Positions 2,312 through 40,622 of a stretch of DNA of 64,000 nucleotides are shown piece by piece. The notes under the pieces are model-generated. The model was not told where the DNA came from, searched no databases, and saw only the letters and a list, made by a program, of their open reading frames with translations. This DNA is from an uncultured Thermococci archaeon (lineage in GTDB: Archaea; Methanobacteriota_B; Thermococci; Methanofastidiosales; B48-G16). Where the stretch lies: contig CAZQQT010000002.1 of the NCBI GenBank assembly GCA_964595645.1, positions 128,001 through 192,000 on the forward strand, read 5' to 3'. Numbering within the stretch: position 1 is the stretch's first letter; each line of letters begins with the position of its first letter. Made by a program: the position numbers and the translations under genes.

Positions 2312-3384
2312 TTTAAATCCTCCAGTACTTCTTTTACAGTTTCTTGTGGGACGTCGTTCCGCATGGCCACCGTACCTATCTCCTCAGGAAGTACGAATGT
2401 GATGTGATTCCGTTGTGTCTTTTTATCGTACTGCATCCTCTCAAGAACAGCACTCGTACTGACTTCGGGGAGCGTTGTGGGGAGTCCGGTCTGGACGATA
2501 AGTTCTTCTTGCCGGTGTACAGCCTCGGTGTAGAGAATTCCCATTTTTTCTGCAATCCGTGCGGCGGCACACATTCCTATTGCCACAGCTCCTCCATGAG
2601 ATAGTGTAAAATTGGTAACAGCTTCAAGTGCATGCCCCACTGTGTGTCCATAGTTCAGTATCTTTCGCACTCCAATCTCCCTTTTATCCTTCTCCACAAC
2701 ACCGATCTTTATCCTACAACATTTTTCTATGATATCTTCCAGCGGAGGAGAAAGAAGAAGGTTTTCTCTACTTTCTTCAAGCGTCTCAAAGAGAGAAGCA
2801 TCTCTGATCATTGCATATTTTATTATCTCTGCAACACCATTTTTCATCTCCTCTTCAGGAAGCGTGGAAAGTACCTCTGTATCTATAAGGACGAGCTCCG
2901 GATCTTTGAATGCGCCGATGATATTTTTCGCATGTGTGTAGTTTACCCCTGTTTTTCCACCGATGCAGCTGTCTACTTGAGCGAGAAGAGTAGTGGGAAG
3001 ATGAATGAGCGGGAGACCTCTTAGATAGGTGGCGGCCACAAAACCTGCAAGATCTCCCACTACTCCCCCACCCAACGCGATTATAGGCGTGAATCTCTCT
3101 ATTCTGTGCTGTAGGAGCTCTTCGTAGATCATCGATGCCATTTCCAACGATTTGCTTTTTTCAGTGTCAGGAATTTCAAGCACCGTTAGCTCGAATTCCT
3201 CATTCAGTAAACTTTTCTTCACGGTCTCTCCATGCAGCTCATTGATCGTTTTATTTGTCACAATTACTGCTTTGGAAGAGTACCCTCTTTTTTTCAGCAT
3301 TGGCCCGATGGTGGAGAGGATCCCACGATCTATAAAGATCCCATAGTTGTTCTGAGGGTGATGGACAGTCAGCTTCCGTCTCAT
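2308..3384 (-). CDS. aroB: 3-dehydroquinate synthase
   Basis: [50 protein letters not shown]. Confidence 0.97.
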
Positions 3385-4430
3385 ATATCTATCATCCTCT
3401 TAAGCTGATGCATCATCTCTGCGAATTGATCGGTTGTGAGCGATTGGTTTCCATCACATAGCGCATCAGCGGGTCTGTTGTGTACCTCTACCATGACACC
3501 ATCTGCACCTGCCGCAATAGCGGCCTTTACCAGAGGGATTACAGCACTCCGTTTCCCCGTGGCATGACTCGGGTCAATGATTACGGGGAGGTGGGTGAGT
3601 TCATTGAGTACAGGAACAGCACTGATATCCAGGGTATTTCTTGTTGCAGTCTCAAATGTCTTGATTCCCCGTTCACAAAGTACCACATTCGGGTTTCCTT
3701 GCGACATAATATACTCTGTTGCAAAAAGGAGATCTTTGATCGTGGCATTCATACTTCGTTTTAGGAATATGGGTTTGGACTGTTTTCCTACTTCCTTGAG
3801 GAGGGAGAAATTCTGCATGTTCCTGGCTCCGATCTGTAACATATCGGAGTATTTCTCTACCAAAGGCACATCCCGTGTGTCCATCACCTCTGTGACGATA
3901 GGGAGTCCTGTTTCTTCCCGTGCCTTTTCGAGAAGTTTTAATCCCAGTTCACCCAACCCCTGAAAGGAGTAGGGGGATGTTCGCGGCTTGAATGCGCCGC
4001 CGCGGAGAATTGATGCTCCCTCTTTCTTTACTCGGTGTGCGGTCTCCAGTAACTGCTCTTTGGTCTCAACACTGCAGGGACCGGCAATGACTACTGGTTT
4101 TTCACCTATAGCTATTCCGCCTACATCTATTACCGTCTTTTTGTCTTTAAACTCCCTTCCAGCCAGAATATATCGTTGGGGGGAAAATATCACTTCTTTT
4201 ACTTCCTGCAGCTGTGATATTTTTTTCACGTCGGAAATATTTTTTGCTACAACCACCGGAGCCGAAAACTCTACCGAAAAGACATCAGAACAGGTTTTTT
4301 TCAGCTGTTCCTCTATCTTAGATCGTTGCAATTTCGATAGATTTTTCTTCAGTACAACTGCGTACAATCCCCTGCTTTCTTTTCTCTCCAACTTAATTGT
4401 TTTTAGAGAAGGATGACCAATCGAACTCAT
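3381..4430 (-). CDS. aroF: DAHP synthase type I-beta with N-terminal ACT-like segment; start uncertain (AUG 4430 preferred, has GGAGG SD)
   Basis: [39 protein letters not shown] motifs. Confidence 0.93.
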
Positions 4431-4518
4431 AGTCATCTCCTCCACAATCTACACAGGCCACCTCATCCTGTCCATTGTCGTTTTCACTATTTTCGTTTCC
4501 TTCACTTTTACATTTCAT
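4393..4518 (-). CDS. Leader peptide of the aro operon, 41 aa: [41 protein letters not shown]
   Basis: Manual translation; AGGTGG SD upstream; lies just downstream of BRE/TATA; aromatic codons only at Y30, F32, W34, F37; paralogous to the pheA leader. Confidence 0.8.
4407..4443 (-). promoter_or_regulatory. Hairpin sequestering the DAHPS SD and start region
   Basis: GGAGG-A-GAUGACUA pairs with UGGUCAUC-CUUCU (13 bp including G-U pairs, one bulged A). Confidence 0.7.
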
Positions 4519-4553
4519 TTATTCCACCTTTCCCCTGATATAGACATGCATGC

Positions 4554-4570
4554 ATTTAAAAGGTTTTTGG
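4554..4570 (-). promoter_or_regulatory. BRE/TATA promoter of the aro operon
   Basis: Minus strand CCAAAAACCTTTTAAAT, about 35 nt upstream of the leader ATG; nearly identical to the pheA promoter. Confidence 0.75.
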
Positions 4571-4640
4571 TGCATTTTTATGTACATGTAGTAGTTCATT
4601 GACTATGTAGATCAATATTCATCAAATTTTCGGACACAGA

Positions 4641-5411
4641 CTAAAGATTTTTTCTTAGCGTTTCGATAAAGGTTACCATCTCACTATAGCTTTTTTTCGT
4701 GACTATATCTCTAAAATTTTCTAGCTGAGTAGTAATTTTCTCAATTTCTGCAAGCGAGTAGGGAGCAAAGAGTATTTCAGCAAGAAGATGGTTATCTTCC
4801 TCTAACAGTTTTCGTGCTACTTCCTGATGTCTTGTGAATGTTGTTCCTGGAACAGCTTTCTCCGGGAGACAGGCAGCAAAAATCAGGGAACAAATAAAAG
4901 GAAGCGCAAGCGAGTCTGCCATGAGGCTATCATGTTCATCGAAGGAACATTCGTATATATGGACACCACGAGTGAGAAAGAACCTCTTAAAAAACTGTTT
5001 GGCTGCAGTATCAGATTCTTCTATAATGATAACATTCTCTTCTTTCAAATCATCAAATGTAGTGAATCTGGGACCGAACATTGGATGGATCGAGGCATAC
5101 CTGTTTCCACACTCTTGGTAGTACAACGGCAGTTTTCCTTTAATGGAAGCAATATCCACAAGAATACAGGCCGATGGCAAGTATGGTGCAACTTCCTCAA
5201 AAACCTCGACGGTATGCTGCAGACTCACCGCATTTATCACCATTTCAGGGTCGAAGGATTTAACCTCTGCGATAGCATCGAGATGAGTAACTCCCTCTAC
5301 TGCCTCTCTTTTCTCTTTATCTTCATCGTAGATTGCTATCTCATGATTTTTTGAGAGCTCACGGGCCAGCCATGAGCCCATATTTCCAACACCTATCACC
5401 GCGATCCTCAT
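4641..5411 (-). CDS. tyrA: Prephenate dehydrogenase; true start MRIAVIG at 5411
   Basis: GVGNMG Rossmann motif, DIASIK, HPMFGP, EHD; ATGA overlap with the pheA stop. Confidence 0.92.
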   Translation of the reverse strand: MRIAVIGVGNMGSWLARELSKNHEIAIYDEDKEKREAVEGVTHLDAIAEVKSFDPEMVINAVSLQHTVEVFEEVAPYLPSACILVDIASIKGKLPLYYQECGNRYASIHPMFGPRFTTFDDLKEENVIIIEESDTAAKQFFKRFFLTRGVHIYECSFDEHDSLMADSLALPFICSLIFAACLPEKAVPGTTFTRHQEVARKLLEEDNHLLAEILFAPYSLAEIEKITTQLENFRDIVTKKSYSEMVTFIETLRKNL

Positions 5412-6463
5412 AGGATCGCCTCCGGGTAGCAGCCGAGGAATTTGTAGATTAGTGTTCGATCTTTCATCTCGCGAAGCATCTCTTTTATTCTCTCCTCTTC
5501 CACAGATCCCTGAAAATCGAGTAGAAACATGTAATGCCCGGGTCTTTCTTTTATAGGCCGGGATATTATTCGTGTGAGATTTATGTTTTTCTCGGTAAAT
5601 ATACGAAGCAGACGGTGGAGGGCACCGGGTTCGTGCTTTACTGAAACGACAATAGAACATTTTGTTCCCTTTCCACAGGGAGCAGAGGAGACAACCACGA
5701 ACCGGGTAAAATTCGAGGACACATCCCCGACGTTTCTTTTTATTATTTCGAGATTGTAACGTTCTGCACATAGTGTACTTGCGATAGCTGCAGTGGCAGG
5801 TGGGAAGGTATCTGCGATCATCCTAGCAGCACCAGCAGTATCGTAGTATGGAACTATCTCGATTCCAGTCTCCGTAAGAAAGCTCCTGCACTGTGCCAAT
5901 GCCTGCGGGTGAGAGTATACTTTTTTAATCTCGCTGAGTTCAGTGCTTGGTGGTGCGAGAAGAGCATGGTGGACAGGAAGCTGTATCTCTCCCACTATTG
6001 GAAGCTCATACGCTATTAGAAGATCCGTTACTTCTGTCACCGTTCCTTCGATTGAATTCTCAATAGGGACAATTCCCAGATCAAACCATCCATGCTCCAC
6101 CGCCTCGAATATTTCAGCAAAGGCTGTGCAGGGGATGGGCACCATTTTTTCGCTGTATCGTTTTGCAGCCATCTCCCCGTAAGCACCGTGTTCACCCTGA
6201 AATCCTATAAGTGCATGTTTTTCTCTCTGGAGTTTTTTACTTTCTGCAATTATTTTCTTAAAAATTTGTGAAGCAAACTCGTCATCTATCAGATCATGGC
6301 AGTACGTTTTAACAGTATTTATAACGCACTGTTCTCTCTTTTCATCAGTGATTTTCTCCTTCAGTTTCGTAGTCCGTAATGCCAGCTCCATTCGTTCGTT
6401 CAGCAGCGAGATAATTTCACGATCTATCCGGTTTATCTCCTCCCTTAGAAGTGTTAACTCCAT
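5408..6463 (-). CDS. pheA: Chorismate mutase / prephenate dehydratase (P-protein)
   Basis: LREEINRIDREII..LNER (CM), FQGEHGAY, PIENSIEG, SHPQALAQC, NFTRF, ACT domain NLTRIISRP. Confidence 0.96.
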   Translation of the reverse strand: MELTLLREEINRIDREIISLLNERMELALRTTKLKEKITDEKREQCVINTVKTYCHDLIDDEFASQIFKKIIAESKKLQREKHALIGFQGEHGAYGEMAAKRYSEKMVPIPCTAFAEIFEAVEHGWFDLGIVPIENSIEGTVTEVTDLLIAYELPIVGEIQLPVHHALLAPPSTELSEIKKVYSHPQALAQCRSFLTETGIEIVPYYDTAGAARMIADTFPPATAAIASTLCAERYNLEIIKRNVGDVSSNFTRFVVVSSAPCGKGTKCSIVVSVKHEPGALHRLLRIFTEKNINLTRIISRPIKERPGHYMFLLDFQGSVEEERIKEMLREMKDRTLIYKFLGCYPEAIL

Positions 6464-6573
6464 TCTTCCCCCCTCCAGAGAGATCCGTCCCTCTTTATCA
6501 CTGACACTCTCAGAAAAGTAATACTCTGTCCTTCACATTGATTCGTCCGGGAACGACTGGAAACAGAAGTCAT
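6454..6573 (-). CDS. Putative 39-aa relay uORF starting inside the pheA leader and ending over the pheA start
   Basis: GGAGGGAG SD then ACT-ATG at 6573; open to TAA within ATGGAGTTAA, a 10-nt overlap with pheA. Confidence 0.45.
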   Translation of the reverse strand: MTSVSSRSRTNQCEGQSITFLRVSVIKRDGSLWRGEEWS

Positions 6574-6649
6574 AGTCGCTCCCTCCGCTATCTCGGCAGC
6601 TTAACATATCATCTCCGCCATCCTCATTTTCTTGTTCTCCATTGTTCAT
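6533..6649 (-). CDS. Leader peptide of pheA-tyrA, 38 aa: MNNGEQENEDGGDDMLSCRDSGGSDYDFCFQSFPDESM
   Basis: Manual translation; AGGTAGGT SD-like site; just downstream of TATA; aromatic codons only at Y26, F28, F30, F33; paralogous to the aro leader. Confidence 0.8.
   Translation of the reverse strand: MNNGEQENEDGGDDMLSCRDSGGSDYDFCFQSFPDESM
6549..6583 (-). promoter_or_regulatory. Hairpin sequestering the internal SD/AUG in the pheA leader
   Basis: GGGAGCGACU pairs with AGUCGUUCCC (10 bp, one G-U). Confidence 0.7.
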
Positions 6650-6680
6650 GATACCTACCTAGACTCTCCTACACAGCTGT

Positions 6681-6696
6681 ATTTAAAAGGTTTTGG
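6681..6696 (-). promoter_or_regulatory. BRE/TATA promoter of pheA-tyrA
   Basis: Minus strand CCAAAACCTTTTAAAT, about 31 nt upstream of the leader ATG. Confidence 0.75.
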
Positions 6697-6827
6697 CACG
6701 CCAGATTTGATATGCAAGAGGCAAAAAATGTGTATGTTTTGAATCCATAAACCCTAAAAGGTATGTGTCTCTATGAGCAGGATTCCCAAAGAAAAACTTC
6801 TTTACTATCTTTTGGATACACTATTCA

Positions 6828-13105: not shown

Positions 13106-13171
13106 TTAGAATCGCCACTCCTCTAATAAAGAGAGAAATTCCAGTGTTCCCAGTAGGGGCTTACTCTGCAT
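13106..13171 (-). CDS. Candidate leaderless trp leader peptide MQSKPLLGTLEFLSLLEEWRF
   Basis: ATG lies 29 nt from the first T of TTTATAAA, the expected TSS position; single Trp codon at position 19 of 21. Confidence 0.45.
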   Translation of the reverse strand: MQSKPLLGTLEFLSLLEEWRF

Positions 13172-34154: not shown

Positions 34155-37100
34155 ATGAGGAAAATAATCGGTTTTATAGTAGTGTTGATTTTAGTTAGTG
34201 TTTCATTGTTGAACTTTGTCGGATCACAACCATCGCTTTCTGTGGATATTACTGGAAATGATACTGTTAGTATATGTGAACAGTACGACTACGATATTAC
34301 CGTGGTGAATCCGTCTGATACGGAAACTGCCACTGATATGGTGGTAACAGCATCTCTTCCGACAATTGTCGGTGAAGACGATGGATTCATTATTATGGAC
34401 AGTGGCGGCGGTGTGGAATCTGACTCCGATGGCGACGGGGTCAATGATACCGTCACGTGGAATGTTGGCGATTTAGATCCGCTGGCTTCGTGGGACACCA
34501 CAATCCGTGTGGAAATTGCGTGTAATGCAGTGTCAGGACAGATACAGGTAGATGCTATACATTCTGGGGGGTCGGTGGATCAGGATTCTCTGTATCTAAC
34601 AGTGAACCCTGGCGCGGTAACTGTCACCAAGACACCGCACGTTATCGAGGCGCATCTGGACGATACCGTTCACTGGACACTGACAGTTACAAGTACGGGT
34701 ATTGGCCCGATACAGAACGTCGTTGTGGAGGATACGTTGGGTGCAGGATTACAGTACGACGATGCACAGACATCACCAACGCCCGGCACTGTGACGAACA
34801 ATGGAGATGGTACCACTACTCTTACGTGGAATGCATCTCAAATTCCAGCATTGGGGACAATGAATTCGGGAGACACCGTGACGATCGAGGTCTATGCAAC
34901 GGTTGATGCGTGTAGCGGTTTGGAGAACAATGCGCAGGCATCATGGGGGTGTGATGGGACTGTCTGTCAGATAGATTCGACAAAGGCCAGTGTGCAGTTA
35001 ATCCTGGACCTTCCTGAGATATCATATACGTTACCCGATTTTCAGATACCGTACTGTTCTTCTGCGAGTTTTACCATTCCAATTACCAATAATGGAGATG
35101 GAACAGCCCATGACTTCTATTTATATGCAGATTTTAGTCCTTTTACCGTGACCGTCACCTCACCCGGAAGTGCGTCATACAATTCAGCTGAGGATAGGTT
35201 TGAACTGGGAGATATCTCATCAGGATCAACGGTGAACCTTCAATTCACGCTCACGATCAATGACTGGTGTGGAAATAGAAACGTATCAAAACAAATTTTG
35301 TTTAGACCTGAGTATACAGACGACTGTGGGAACACCTTCCATCCGCCAGTACAATTGGGGAATCTTTCTACTACTGGGACACCCACCTTATCCGCGAGTA
35401 AAACCACCCCCTCGTACGAGATGTATCTCGGTGAGCAGATGACCTACGATCTCTCTGTTACGTACAGCGGCGACACGACATGTGTAGGAAATAGTTCAGC
35501 TATTACCATTACCGATACGATCCCCGATGGATTCGCTATCGTGGACGCCGGTGGAGGAAGTGTTTCTGGTAGTACTATTACGTGGACTATCTCGCCCACC
35601 GCGCCACCGTGGAGTACAACTATTACCCTTCAGGCGCCTTCATATGCAGATTGCGAAGACTACTGTTATACTACCGCCACGAATACACTTGAGGCGACGG
35701 TAACGGATTGTTGCGGGTGTACACTAACTGCCAGTGACAGCGCGTCTATCTATCTGGAGTGCGAGCAGCTTGTGGACTCGGAGAAGACAGTTTCTTCTGT
35801 TACAGGCAACTGGGAGAAGTGCACTGAAATTACTTATACGAATACATATGTGTTTGCTGATGATCCCGATCTCGACGGTGAATCATGGGATAACATGATT
35901 TTCTATGAAGAAATGGACAATAGTCAAGCGTATGTCTCCACGCAGCCTGTGACTATTACCGATAACGATAATCCAGCTAATACGTGTTCAGTAAATATTA
36001 CACCTACTGTTGCAGGGGGAGAGTTAGTCTATGATTTCTCAGGGCATGATTTCTCGAGCTGTCCCTCCATTAGGAACTCAACCTTAGTAATCGAGTACAA
36101 TTTACAAACAACTGATGCGTCCCAGCCCCAGTGTGCTGGGAGCTATACATTTTACGACTGGTCACGACTCGATACCGGATGGCCCAACAATTGGGGTCAG
36201 TGTATGCCGGATAGTGTGATTCAAGAGGGAGAACAGGTCACCGTACAGCAGTCGGATATGAATATCAGTATCAGTGGGATACCCCAGATGATGGATATCT
36301 GCGGTAGCTACGATATCACACTCACACTCACCAATACGCACTCAACTGTGGATGCGTACGATGTAAAAGTCTTTTTCCCTACGGAGAATTACAGCATCGA
36401 TCTCGGCTCCATAAGCTATGGAGGCGTGACACCTAATTCTGGCCCCACAGCTGTAAGCGGAGGATATGAGTGGGACTATGGTGATAACTTCACCGGCGGT
36501 ACGAGCGGTAGCATCTCCCTCACTGTGCAAAAACGGTGTACAGGAGACTGTGCGTGTAGCGCCACTGTGTACTTCGATGATCTCTGCAATGATGACGATG
36601 TACCGGACGTTTCCGATCCCACATGCTCAGAATCTGCCATACAGCAGCCTGTCTTTGTTCGTAACGGCTCTATCTTCATCAAAAAAACGCCTGAGCTTGT
36701 ATACGCCATAGAAAACCAGGCAACGTGGAAAATCTACGTGGTGAACTCGGGTAATGGTACCGCGTACAATGTGTGGGTCGAAGATATTCTCGATTCTGAT
36801 TTAGCGTATGATACTTCATCTGTTACCGACTTGGATGGAAATACAGTAACAGGAGTAACGACTAACCCAAACCAAGACCGAAATGGCAATCCTATCAATG
36901 GGGTCACATGGGTGATCGATGAAATCCCCGCAGGAAAAACCAGGATCATCGAGTTAACCACAGATATCACAGGGTGTACCAACCTCGACAACGATGTGAC
37001 TGCAAGCTGGGGCTGCCTCGGTAGCGACTGTCAGGTGCCAGTCACTGATTACTCTCGTGTAGAGATTCCCGGTTCCAACGCGGTGACCACCAACACGCTC

Positions 37101-40100
37101 CCTGCGGATATTGATCTGTGCGAGCAGGATACGGTGAGTGTGGAGGTAAAGAACACAGGAATTACCACGGTGTACAACGCTGAAGTAGAGGTCACCCTAC
37201 CACAGGGACTGCACTACGTACCTGGAACAGGGAATCCCGCCGACCCGGAAAACACATCAGCGAACCCTGTGGTGTGGACCAGTACAGAAGTTTCAGCACT
37301 CGCCTCTCTCGCACCGGCGGGAGAACCCGGCGACACCGTTACTATCTCGTTCGATGTTGCTGCGGGCTGTGACTTTCCCGATGGGAACAGGAGGATTAGC
37401 TCCAAAGTCTCATACGAGACGGTCTGCGGCGATCCCGAAGAGAGCCCATTGAGTAGCTCAACGCTTTCGGTGAATGAGCCCAGTATATCGATTGCGAAGG
37501 ATGGACGCAATGTTACTACAGGACAGACATCCCACACCAATACCGTGAACGCAGAGCCGGGAGATACAGTGGAGTGGCGTATCCGCATCTCAAACAATGG
37601 TGCAACAAACGCGCAGAATGTGGAGTTTTGGGATGTGTTACCGTCGAATATGACCTTTGTGTCAGTTTCTCCTGCTCCTGTAAGCGGGAGTGGGACATCG
37701 GGGGATCCGTGGGTACACGGTAATCTGGGTACTGGACAGACAGCGACCTACTATGTAACAGGCACCGTAGATGCCAATGAGTGCACCGATCCTCCGGTGA
37801 ATAATAGGGCGTGTGTACAGTACGGCTGTGACGATAACCCCACAACACCCGATACCGATCCGTGCAGAGAGCCGCAGAGATGCAATAATGGACGCCTGAG
37901 GACGACATCACAGTTCACCGTTTCGCAGACACTGGGAACGATTACTACCTGTGAGGGTGATATCACTGTGACTGTGCAGAATAATGGCCCTACTGCGTAT
38001 AACGTGGAGATCACCTCCGATCTTCCCACAGGGTTCGAGTACGATTCCATGATCTCAGGTCCTAATCCCACTCCCGATCCTCCTGCAGACGTAACGCAAC
38101 CTGTATGGATCATTGGAAATATGGCAGAAGGACAAATCGTTACTCTCCATTTCAGTATTGTTGCTGACGGCATGAGTTGCGATACAGTAATCCCCAGTGC
38201 TAACACCGTATATGTGAATTTTGATAATTACTGTGGTCAAAACTACACACGTTCGAACACTCGCAACGTTACACCGTTAAAACCTGTACTCACCGTGGAA
38301 AAAACGCCGGAAACCCAGGCCAAGGAAGATGGAGGGACGGCGACCTGGACGATCACCGTAGAAAACACCGGGAACTATCAGGCAGGAAATGTCGAAGTCG
38401 TCGATGTATTAAGCGATAACTTCTCTAACATTGTCGCGAATAACGGTTCTGGTGGGGAAGTTCCATCAATCAGCGATCATACCGTTACCTGGAGCCTCAT
38501 GAATCCTATTTCTGTTGGAGGAACGTGGACTGCTACCCTTTCTGCTGATATCAGCGGAAATCTCGGAATGGATACAGTGACGGCCAATGGCACCTGCGCT
38601 ATGGGCTGTGTATACAGCACCACTACCGATGACGCGTATGTCCAGACGATAGAGGGGCTTTTCAAATCACCGAACCTCCAAGAGGCTACCATTGGCGAGG
38701 AAATCACCTTCCACATCTCGTCATCGTACTGGGGCACATCCAGTTATCAAAATGTGCAGATTATCGATACATTACCTACAGGATTGGAATATGTCACCTC
38801 TACGTATTTAGACACCCTCGGACTATCACCTACGCCTTCAGTCGTAGGCCAGACCATTACATGGGATTTAGGTAATTTTACCGGACCCAATACCGTAGAT
38901 ATTACTGTCACAGCACGAGTGCAGGATATCCCAGGCAATGTGGATGGTGTCACTCTTACCAACTGGGCGCAGACCACCGGAAGCGAGGAGGGAGTGTCCT
39001 TTGACTTGTCAGATAGTGGGGTCGTCGAGATCATCGAGCCTGAATTAACCCTTGGGAAACACGGATCCGCTACCGAAGCACTCCCGGGCGATACGGTACA
39101 TTACACGCTCACTATCGAAAATACGGGGACCAGTCCTGCATACGATGTCACTATTGAAGATGTGGTACCATCGGAATTGATTCTCGATGAATCCTCCATT
39201 ACTTCTGCCCCAGGAGCAGATTCTGTAACGGTGAGTGACAATACGATTACGTGGGAGTACACCATCATTCCAGTAGACAGTACGGTAACACTGGAGTATG
39301 ATGTGGAGATTCCACTGGAGGGAGGCACCTTCACCAACACCGCGACGATCACCGACTACTCTTCATTACTCGGTGACAGTCAGTACGAGCGACACTATTC
39401 CCCTGTTTCTGATGACTGGACAGTGGTGGTACCGGGTACCGATATCCTCAAGATCACATTAAATACAGCGGTCAATGTTCCCTCACCTGGAGGAACGGTG
39501 TACTTCGAACTCACCATTGAAAACACGGGGTCAATGAGTCTTAACCCAGTGCAGTTGATTGATACACTCCCGGATGGACTCACGTATATTCCGGGAACAA
39601 CACTCGTTGACGGTGTCTCCTACGAGCCAGACACTGTCACTGATAATACGGATGGGACCCAGACACTGACGTGGAATGATATTCAGCCTCCACCAGATCC
39701 AATGGATCCTAGCGATACAATTGAGGTCACGTTTGAGGCGTCGGTGGATCCGAAAAGAGCCGGCACCTTTATCAATAAGGCACGTGTCATTGGCACCTCG
39801 AGTATAGGCGATGTGTCTGACGAGGACGACTCGCCCATCGGCGTCAAGTCATCCGCTATCAGCGTCGTAAAATCAATTAATCCGTCTGTCATCAGTATCG
39901 GTCAGACAGTAGAGGTATGGTTGAGAGTGACTAATACGGGGAAAGTACCGCTGGATCCTGTGGAAGTGGTGGATGAGCTTCCAGTAGGGCTCACTTATGC
40001 AGGAGGAGCATCCGTGTCACCGGATACTGTGACACCGCATTCAGATGGCACGACGACACTCGCATGGAACAATGTTGGGCTGTTGGATGTGGGGGAGAGA

Positions 40101-40622
40101 ACAACGCTCATCTTCGATGCGGTATTCACCGGAGAGGACCCTCCGGTCACGAATCTCGTTACAGTGACAGGCACGCCACCCAATGGATTTGCAGTTTCCG
40201 ACGATGACACTGCCCAGGTTACTCCTCCTCTTGGGACAAGTAAAGAGGTATGGAGGATACTCGCCTACAACGGGCTTTATCGGTGTGAGCTATGTAACAT
40301 CGATGAATTCTATCGAGAAGCACGAGAACTGGGCCTCACGTTCTCCGAAGAACGAAATGAGTGCTGCGAACCAGATGATCTTGTTGAAAAACTTCAGGAA
40401 GAGATCGTTGCGCGTGGGTTGGAGATGGATATACGGTACCAGAAAGCGCTTGAACTTCTTGAATGTTCTCGTCAGTGCTGCGAGGACGCGTTTAACGCGT
40501 ATGAAACTAAAGATTACATAAAAGCATACAGAAAAGTCCACGAACGATGCAATGCGCAAAGGGAAGCTCTCAAGCTCATGTTAGATGTTCTTCGGGATGC
40601 TGGCTGCGGATGTTCTCCGTAG
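34155..40622 (+). CDS. Giant secreted Cys-rich surface protein with DUF11/Ig-like repeats
   Basis: Signal peptide; many K...G..V.[WY].I...N.G....D.LP.GL.Y units; acidic and Thr-rich. Confidence 0.82.
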   Translation: MRKIIGFIVVLILVSVSLLNFVGSQPSLSVDITGNDTVSICEQYDYDITVVNPSDTETATDMVVTASLPTIVGEDDGFIIMDSGGGVESDSDGDGVNDTVTWNVGDLDPLASWDTTIRVEIACNAVSGQIQVDAIHSGGSVDQDSLYLTVNPGAVTVTKTPHVIEAHLDDTVHWTLTVTSTGIGPIQNVVVEDTLGAGLQYDDAQTSPTPGTVTNNGDGTTTLTWNASQIPALGTMNSGDTVTIEVYATVDACSGLENNAQASWGCDGTVCQIDSTKASVQLILDLPEISYTLPDFQIPYCSSASFTIPITNNGDGTAHDFYLYADFSPFTVTVTSPGSASYNSAEDRFELGDISSGSTVNLQFTLTINDWCGNRNVSKQILFRPEYTDDCGNTFHPPVQLGNLSTTGTPTLSASKTTPSYEMYLGEQMTYDLSVTYSGDTTCVGNSSAITITDTIPDGFAIVDAGGGSVSGSTITWTISPTAPPWSTTITLQAPSYADCEDYCYTTATNTLEATVTDCCGCTLTASDSASIYLECEQLVDSEKTVSSVTGNWEKCTEITYTNTYVFADDPDLDGESWDNMIFYEEMDNSQAYVSTQPVTITDNDNPANTCSVNITPTVAGGELVYDFSGHDFSSCPSIRNSTLVIEYNLQTTDASQPQCAGSYTFYDWSRLDTGWPNNWGQCMPDSVIQEGEQVTVQQSDMNISISGIPQMMDICGSYDITLTLTNTHSTVDAYDVKVFFPTENYSIDLGSISYGGVTPNSGPTAVSGGYEWDYGDNFTGGTSGSISLTVQKRCTGDCACSATVYFDDLCNDDDVPDVSDPTCSESAIQQPVFVRNGSIFIKKTPELVYAIENQATWKIYVVNSGNGTAYNVWVEDILDSDLAYDTSSVTDLDGNTVTGVTTNPNQDRNGNPINGVTWVIDEIPAGKTRIIELTTDITGCTNLDNDVTASWGCLGSDCQVPVTDYSRVEIPGSNAVTTNTLPADIDLCEQDTVSVEVKNTGITTVYNAEVEVTLPQGLHYVPGTGNPADPENTSANPVVWTSTEVSALASLAPAGEPGDTVTISFDVAAGCDFPDGNRRISSKVSYETVCGDPEESPLSSSTLSVNEPSISIAKDGRNVTTGQTSHTNTVNAEPGDTVEWRIRISNNGATNAQNVEFWDVLPSNMTFVSVSPAPVSGSGTSGDPWVHGNLGTGQTATYYVTGTVDANECTDPPVNNRACVQYGCDDNPTTPDTDPCREPQRCNNGRLRTTSQFTVSQTLGTITTCEGDITVTVQNNGPTAYNVEITSDLPTGFEYDSMISGPNPTPDPPADVTQPVWIIGNMAEGQIVTLHFSIVADGMSCDTVIPSANTVYVNFDNYCGQNYTRSNTRNVTPLKPVLTVEKTPETQAKEDGGTATWTITVENTGNYQAGNVEVVDVLSDNFSNIVANNGSGGEVPSISDHTVTWSLMNPISVGGTWTATLSADISGNLGMDTVTANGTCAMGCVYSTTTDDAYVQTIEGLFKSPNLQEATIGEEITFHISSSYWGTSSYQNVQIIDTLPTGLEYVTSTYLDTLGLSPTPSVVGQTITWDLGNFTGPNTVDITVTARVQDIPGNVDGVTLTNWAQTTGSEEGVSFDLSDSGVVEIIEPELTLGKHGSATEALPGDTVHYTLTIENTGTSPAYDVTIEDVVPSELILDESSITSAPGADSVTVSDNTITWEYTIIPVDSTVTLEYDVEIPLEGGTFTNTATITDYSSLLGDSQYERHYSPVSDDWTVVVPGTDILKITLNTAVNVPSPGGTVYFELTIENTGSMSLNPVQLIDTLPDGLTYIPGTTLVDGVSYEPDTVTDNTDGTQTLTWNDIQPPPDPMDPSDTIEVTFEASVDPKRAGTFINKARVIGTSSIGDVSDEDDSPIGVKSSAISVVKSINPSVISIGQTVEVWLRVTNTGKVPLDPVEVVDELPVGLTYAGGASVSPDTVTPHSDGTTTLAWNNVGLLDVGERTTLIFDAVFTGEDPPVTNLVTVTGTPPNGFAVSDDDTAQVTPPLGTSKEVWRILAYNGLYRCELCNIDEFYREARELGLTFSEERNECCEPDDLVEKLQEEIVARGLEMDIRYQKALELLECSRQCCEDAFNAYETKDYIKAYRKVHERCNAQREALKLMLDVLRDAGCGCSP

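Follow-up and report, generated by a model that had tools for sequence, protein, structure and literature searches.

How does an archaeon adjust the synthesis of aromatic amino acids when its aro operon and its pheA-tyrA operon both open with a short reading frame carrying Tyr and Phe codons, and with a Trp codon only at the aro operon? The question is raised by a 64,000-nucleotide (nt) stretch of DNA (G000:C2:128001-192000, here called the window) from a 1.97-Mb genome (G000, 99.96% complete) of the Methanofastidiosales, an order that includes Methanofastidiosum, in the class that includes Thermococcus and Pyrococcus. On the minus strand of the window the gene order is trpE-G-D-C-F-B-A, then chorismate mutase/pheA-tyrA, then aroF-B-D-E-K-A (aroK and aroA, which follow aroF-aroB-aroD-aroE, being assigned by sequence), and most genes of these clusters are joined by 4-nt overlaps. 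A first-pass annotation had proposed that the two open reading frames (ORFs) are paralogous leader peptides of a ribosome-mediated attenuation system. Comparison with relatives indicates that the element is very probably a real translated control region, and that by some route it probably senses the charging of aromatic tRNAs. The route favoured here, a plausible reading that falls just short of probable, is a ribosome-operated translational switch: a ribosome stalled on the leader would split and restart at a start codon hidden within it. The leaders and their signals are the following.

4393..4518, minus strand: aro leader ORF (P0001), 41 codons; homologues at L004:891-1010, L054:2133-2261, L220:320-424, L225:1098-1220 and L215:2615-2737
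6533..6649, minus strand: phe leader ORF (P0002), 38 codons; homologues at L214:306-395, L215:401-511 and L219:1627-1755
4417..4431, minus strand: aro control codons, Tyr 4431-4429, Phe 4425-4423 and Trp 4419-4417; A and T of the AroF start codon fall within the Tyr codon
6551..6574, minus strand: phe control codons, Tyr 6574-6572, Phe 6568-6566, Phe 6562-6560 and Phe 6553-6551; no Trp
4554..4572, minus strand: B recognition element (BRE) and TATA box of the aro operon, read from sequence; the same box lies 5' of all homologous leaders
6681..6697, minus strand: BRE and TATA box of the pheA-tyrA operon, read from sequence
4524..4530, minus strand: Shine-Dalgarno (SD) site of the aro leader, AAGGTG, at constant spacing from the leader ATG despite a variable length of the 5' untranslated region (UTR)
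6654..6660, minus strand: SD-like site of the phe leader ORF (6660-6654)

At the level of the letters, the first-pass description is accurate. The ORFs translate as quoted, 4518-4393 into 41 amino acids and 6649-6533 into 38; each has the promoter and the SD-like site claimed for it, and in both the aromatic codons stand at offsets 0, +2, +4 and +7, counted from the Tyr codon. The part before the first Tyr, said to lack aromatic residues, has none in 52 codons (P~0.007 at the genome's 9.2%), a depletion that is weaker when judged by the leaders' own purine-rich composition. Paralogy of the two leaders is supported by an alignment score of 75, against a maximum of 63 in 20,000 shuffles. Neither the full motif nor a looser GG-x-D-aromatic version occurs anywhere else in the six frames of the genome; Rfam gives no match, and NCBIfam has no family for either peptide. 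About 10 nt 5' of the BRE, the aro and trp promoters carry a palindrome-like YATGWWCA box (window ~4592-4580 and ~13225-13205; also L004, L054, L220, L225 and L053). This box is possibly an operator, unlike the consensus site of the regulator Tar, which was not seen on inspection by eye.

Searches with AroF, PheA and the leader peptides gathered ten distinct leaders, and these bear out the expectation that the frames would be conserved in relatives. Six lie 5' of aro genes (G000, G001/L004, L054, L220, L225, L215) and four 5' of pheA (G000, L214, L215, L219), so that every leader precedes aro or pheA genes. All ten have the promoter and the leader ATG, and nearly all have a clear leader SD at constant spacing; what varies is the length of the 5' UTR and of the ORF (29-42 codons). 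Because the aro leader of L215 heads an archaeal-type pathway (aldolase and 3-dehydroquinate (DHQ) synthase II) instead of aroF/aroB, the element has outlived a change of enzymes. The tree of the ten leaders is mostly unresolved, and at least two origins of the phe leaders are suggested by pairwise identity (93% for L219/L054, 67% for G000/L214) rather than by supported branches. In L221 (212-436) a phe-type promoter is joined to an aro leader and aroF, and L054 (1-110) starts with an exact copy of the aroF start; these arrangements, with which L222 is grouped, reflect either recent duplication or recombination between leaders or mis-assembly.

Peptide and covariance-model searches did not find the element outside this Methanofastidiosales lineage. 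Profiles of the peptide, run against 5.8 billion and 1.84 billion proteins, matched only 5-6, all from the lineage, and among 34 genomes of the order the covariance model found the element in G000 and G001 only; it was not found in 40 other aro/phe loci. A DNA pattern search of 133 Thermococci used a pattern so strict that it missed the window's own leaders. No pheA was found in G001, which is 94% complete and has a contig that starts inside tyrA.

The motif itself is present as it was quoted, but the first-pass annotation does not mention its overlap with an SD and a +1-frame ATG, both inside a hairpin. The features concerned are these.

4404..4444, minus strand: hairpin in which the AroF SD region pairs with the Trp-Ser-Ser-Phe codons, with the AroF ATG at the start of the loop; -17.0 kcal/mol
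6549..6583, minus strand: hairpin paralogous to the aro one, covering the SD region that serves the +1-frame ATG at 6573; -20.9 kcal/mol
3381..4430, minus strand: aroF, 3-deoxy-D-arabinoheptulosonate 7-phosphate (DAHP) synthase of 349 amino acids by family match; starts at the +1-frame ATG 4430, 38 nt inside the leader
6454..6573, minus strand: relay ORF (P0132), 39 codons by translation, beginning at the hidden ATG and stopping 10 nt into pheA; like-placed relay ORFs occur in relatives
4641..6463, minus strand: chorismate mutase/prephenate dehydratase at 6463-5408, overlapping by 4 nt with prephenate dehydrogenase at 5411-4641

Read in this way, much of the "peptide motif" is an RNA signal, in which the G-G-x-D-Y codons supply the SD and the +1-frame ATG within the hairpin. 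The A and T of this hidden ATG lie in the Tyr codon. In all ten leaders a G follows the Tyr codon, although the residue encoded there varies (D, E, A or G), and Tyr is always TAT though TAC is commoner genome-wide; thus, it is the hidden ATG that is conserved. As a protein motif the shared peptide finds no support in the comparison. Only G and D are invariant among the homologues, their codons being the SD and the hairpin arm; the Asp of CxD is kept in five of ten, and the +7 Phe in only three.

The same comparison bears on the suggestion that the leader is an arrest peptide like TnaC or AAP, on which free aromatic amino acid would stall the ribosome and block the start of AroF or of the relay ORF. 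Such a peptide would give the right sign of control without invoking a new kind of restart, and the ATG would lie beneath the stalled ribosome. In addition, seven of ten leaders have a Cys eight codons before Tyr, encoded by TGT in some and by TGC in others. However, the two invariant residues are accounted for by the RNA, the tail from Tyr to the stop varies in sequence and in length (11-15 codons), and in starvation nothing except coupling of the kind known from phage MS2 would open a stem of -14 to -21 kcal/mol. Because neither the +7 Phe nor the distance to the stop is conserved, arrest of this type is judged very unlikely.

Several observations set the hairpin apart. Among the 689 SD-led starts of the genome, only 0.3% are as stable as the aro hairpin, and the phe hairpin is stronger than any. 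A genome scan for the layout alone, with no aromatic or motif input, ranks these two sites first, followed by one weak third. Across the leaders the 9-bp stem is 94% paired, with changes on both sides at four pairs, and does better than slid controls, although these covariation figures are inflated by the relatedness of the sequences. Whole-leader folding z-scores are unremarkable; the signal is local. As in translational attenuators, the target SD is sequestered by a helix that includes leader codons.

The hidden ATG starts AroF in five of the aro leaders. The N-terminal extension that it gives the protein is conserved in the AroF frame, where synonymous and non-synonymous differences number 43:35, compared with 5:62 in the leader frame; in the NCBI annotation, too, the G001 orthologue starts at this ATG. 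A TTG at 4367 was considered as the AroF start and rejected: it is CTG or CTC in three relatives, and there is no conserved in-frame start further down aroF. The coding sequence of aroF starts inside the leader; for this gene, what is regulated must be whether ribosomes enter the +1 frame at 4430.

At pheA, the hidden ATG heads the relay ORF instead. Relay ORFs of 52, 70 and 74 codons, with unrelated sequences, end 10-14 nt inside pheA in L214, L215 and L219, and a partial one is seen in L054. Over a range of 39-74 codons, an overlap of 10-14 nt in five loci is the arrangement expected of termination-reinitiation, and the relay frames are open against odds of 0.10, 0.05 and 0.006. The L219 and L054 relays consist of the first part of aroF, copied and spliced to pheA. 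Two side observations concern these frames. Within window 6532-6464, pheA is in frame with the phe leader with no stop between, such that read-through of the leader TGA would fuse them, an arrangement not kept in L214. In L215 (2697-2903) the relay of the aro leader ends with nine aromatic codons in twelve, followed by a small hairpin over an SD, a layout suggestive of two sensors in series; the ATG after this relay heads only eight codons, while the matching ATG in G007 starts asd.

Are the aromatic codons themselves under selection? The control codons do match the pathway product, as the first-pass annotation had it, with Trp in all six aro leaders and in none of the four phe leaders. The Tyr codon follows from the stem and the ATG, and the Trp codon is partly paired, so that only Phe and the Trp pattern provide independent evidence. 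Phe is found at +2 in nine of ten leaders (five TTC, four TTT) while the +1-frame residues vary, and loop differences are 12:6 synonymous to non-synonymous in the leader frame, against 6:18 in the AroF frame. Trp is retained in the aro leaders even where it has been moved out of the stem by an insertion (L054) or by one codon (L215). The L054 aro leader and the L219 phe leader, 93% identical, differ at 6 of 129 nt, with five of the differences within 11 loop nt (P~1e-5); these changes remove Trp and keep Phe through a silent change, though the two come from different samples, so that strain differences and mis-joins are possible. Finally, the 242 codons that precede the loop include no aromatic codon, where genome frequency predicts 22 and base composition 8 (the kin not being independent). 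Codon-level sensing is therefore supported by Phe retention and the Trp pattern, and what comparison shows is the anatomy, the stem, and that the hidden ATG and the Phe and Trp codons are under selection.

These findings also make it very unlikely that the ribosome senses no amino acid at all, and that temperature or an RNA-binding regulator opens the hairpin, with the leader a constitutive coupler or a purine-rich by-product. Half of the motif does follow from the SD, the ATG and the stem, purine-rich sequence (71-85% A+G) alone depletes aromatic codons, and there is the possible operator box 5' of the BRE. Against this, all ten sequences keep the leader ATG and SD, loop changes are synonymous in the leader frame, Trp loss in the L219 copy is targeted, and cognate leaders stand at trp and his too.

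Given such a leader, how might uncharged tRNA turn on the downstream frame? Attenuation of the classical trpL/pheL type does not describe it: no terminator-like site was found on the minus strand at either leader, and the controlled start lies under the control codons rather than downstream of them. Nor does the usual logic apply, in which a stall frees an SD further on. The ribosome footprint is 27 nt, 12 nt behind the P site and 15-16 nt ahead of it (PMC7261190), and consequently a second ribosome cannot load under the stalled one. From the arrangement we infer translation, stalling, the sign of control and a split-and-restart step. In this model, the hairpin would shut the SD of the +1-frame ATG to free ribosomes, and only a ribosome translating the leader would open it. 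With Tyr and Phe (for aro, also Trp) plentiful, that ribosome would run on to the leader stop, 35-47 nt beyond the hidden ATG in the ten leaders; the stem would re-form, and neither AroF nor the relay would be made. With a cognate tRNA uncharged, it would stall in the opened loop, the ATG lying between ~4 nt ahead of and 8 nt behind the P-site codon and the SD within reach. The hungry codon would then act as a conditional stop, the ribosome being split by rescue factors, by destabilisation through an Asp/Glu-rich nascent chain, or by both. The small subunit could restart at the hidden ATG, giving AroF directly or, at pheA, acting through the relay ORF by termination-reinitiation. The 4-nt overlaps would pass the signal down both operons, and FttA-type polarity may end transcription of an untranslated frame. 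The genome encodes pelota and FttA, and Asp or Glu precedes nearly every control codon; this support is circumstantial.

A rival with some of the same parts is coupling as in the MS2 lysis gene, whereby the stem is opened by a ribosome that passes through the leader or terminates at its stop, initiation at the hidden ATG falls to another ribosome (or to the first one after sliding backwards), and the aromatic codons only tune dwell or act as a brake. The overlaps of 35-47 nt match the coat-lysis spacing (-50, with -38 also working; PMC12548453) and just accommodate two footprints of 27 nt (PMC7261190). When a ribosome at the stop is taken to cover 15 nt, nine of ten leaders can still form the stem, at -9 to -18 kcal/mol; in G001 it is weak (-3.8), as this rival would have it. 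However, AroF would then fall in starvation, opposite to what a biosynthetic operon needs; in L054, L219 and the phe leader of L215 a terminating ribosome covers no part of the stem; and the Trp pattern is left unexplained. Coupling of this kind is therefore thought unlikely. In E. coli, coupling falls steeply with longer overlaps and is weak at 35-47 nt (PMC12548453), whereas reinitiation coupling has been shown for short overlaps in Haloferax (PMC6728339). The P site of the stalled ribosome would be within the Haloferax range, coupling from the stop would be weak, and the stem re-forms in nine of ten; for these reasons, stalling, splitting and restart is favoured.

Another possibility is a +1 frameshift at the hungry codon, aided by the internal SD as in bacterial RF2, by which the ribosome would slip into the AroF or relay frame and make a leader fusion. 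The sign is right, the target frame is always +1, and the SD stands ~4 nt before the P-site codon with Tyr in the A site, in line with the short spacing of RF2-type shifts; a slippery TTT-TAT is present in the L215 phe leader and also in the G007 and G013 leaders. Yet the P-site codon (GAN or GCC) cannot re-pair in +1 in nine of ten leaders, the window having GAC, GAG or GAT before each control codon, and slippage has no need of an invariant ATG at good SD spacing. A frameshift is thus considered improbable, more so than MS2-type coupling.

The stall-and-restart model has its own difficulties. No precedent was found in the literature for reinitiation after a stall at a sense codon. The shortest overlap, 35 nt, just lets a second ribosome load behind one at the stop, a fit to coupling of the MS2 type. 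The L215 leaders are basic rather than acidic, and destabilisation by acidic residues consequently cannot be general. The model does not account for the Cys eight codons before Tyr; moreover, with an SD of its own (30-45% unpaired), pheA could be translated independently of the relay. Stem and ATG already dictate the Tyr, and in most aro stems, L054 excepted, the Trp codon is partly paired. Furthermore, the homologues come from one small lineage, and L054, L219 and L221 may include mis-assembled repeats.

Other leaders in the genome and the order suggest that frames read by the ribosome are common here, in several layouts. One further feature belongs in this context.

13106..13171, minus strand: trp leader before trpE (P0131), built differently from the aro and phe leaders, probably leaderless, 21 codons with one Trp at codon 19; G001 and G007 (of another family) share the 21 codons and the ending Trp-Arg-Phe/Leu-stop

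In this leader (window 13171-13106; L053 ~1400-1465; L227) the start codon pairs with a segment 3' of the stop, and three genomes from two families show compensatory changes in this pairing. An alternative trp ORF with two Trp codons (window ~13175-13123) was rejected because it is not conserved, while the 21-codon frame is. In G001 (L053 ~1453-1500), ATC stands at the position of the trpE ATG, and an in-frame upstream ATG overlaps the leader Trp codon, echoing the aro/phe layout. A his leader (G000:C7 ~126521-126444, minus strand) of 25 codons ends His-His-His-Arg-stop, and a hairpin then covers the hisG SD; this is the layout of classical translational attenuators, from which the aro and phe leaders of the same genome differ. 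Methanofastidiosum has a conserved 23-codon ORF shortly after a TATA box, with a Tyr/Phe(/Trp) run at its end, before chorismate mutase-aroF-aroF (L006 924-995, L008 997-1068, L012, L013, L017, L020). Leaders in G007 (L231 347-466) and G013 (L232 ~258-476) end Asp-Leu-Phe-Tyr-Trp/Cys-stop before asd and an aldolase-type aro operon. They have an overlapping +1 frame that ends in aromatic codons (G007) or on the asd start (G013), with slippery TTT-TAT/TAC after an SD-like site, and are possibly a frameshift version. ARAGORN lists 43 tRNAs in the genome and no tRNA-Trp, which probably contains an intron and was missed. Elsewhere in the window a 2155-codon ORF occupies 34155-40622 on the plus strand.

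If the restart reading is true, the element is a module that can be copied before other genes and retuned by one codon, Trp being lost on the move to the Phe/Tyr branch. The aro/phe pair is a natural experiment, one codon in it following the end product, and Trp, His and aromatic leaders stand side by side in one genome. The module bears on whether the archaeal ribosome, at a hungry codon, waits, shifts, or recycles and restarts; at 130 nt it is small enough for tests in Thermococcus kodakarensis, of the same class. More broadly, though held more tentatively still, an uncharged-tRNA stall may serve as a conditional stop codon: the small subunit that stalled would begin again at a start codon overlapping the hungry codons, and the relay ORF would be portable. 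As far as we found, such a mechanism is undescribed in any domain.

How, then, does the element compare with known systems? Published control of these archaeal operons is by Tar (TK0271) of Thermococcus kodakarensis and TrpY of Methanothermobacter, DNA-binding transcription factors that act on the same aro, tyr-phe and trp operons (PMC6737238). Tar cannot distinguish the three aromatic amino acids (PMC6737238), whereas the aro and phe leaders are product-matched. The first-pass annotation knew of no characterised archaeal equivalent of such leaders, and the literature search found none either, subscription papers being mostly outside its reach. A Met-Trp mini-ORF has reportedly been proposed to tune trpY translation. 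Like E. coli trpL and pheL, the leaders are short ORFs first on the transcript, with their own initiation site and with codons for the pathway product under selection; unlike them, they have an archaeal promoter, two to four spaced control codons, a start codon under these, and no terminator or antiterminator that could be found. ermCL and cat-86 are translational attenuators, and the layout is shared by the mycobacterial polycysteine small ORFs (10.1101/834739). There too a leader ribosome controls a helix that hides a downstream SD, but in the polycysteine and ermC type the stalled ribosome covers the anti-SD and frees an SD further down, whereas here SD and ATG lie under the stalled ribosome. 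MS2 coat-lysis (PMC12548453) offers an other-frame start 38-50 nt before the upstream stop and a hairpin opened by upstream translation; it is constitutive, and its upstream gene is a full protein rather than a mini-ORF with product-matched codons. Salmonella mgtQ (PMC8092293) is likewise a small acidic ORF, and aborting its translation favours that of a gene whose ribosome-binding site is locked in a stem. However, it senses Mg2+, has 8 codons and does not overlap its target start, and for the aro and phe leaders we only infer destabilisation. Archaeal termination-reinitiation (PMC6728339, PMC10666635) fits the step from relay to pheA and the 4-nt overlaps, but it has been described for stop codons and not for sense-codon stalls. 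Taken together, these comparisons suggest an element that works like a leader-peptide attenuator but falls outside the trpL, ermC, TnaC and RF2 families as these are defined.

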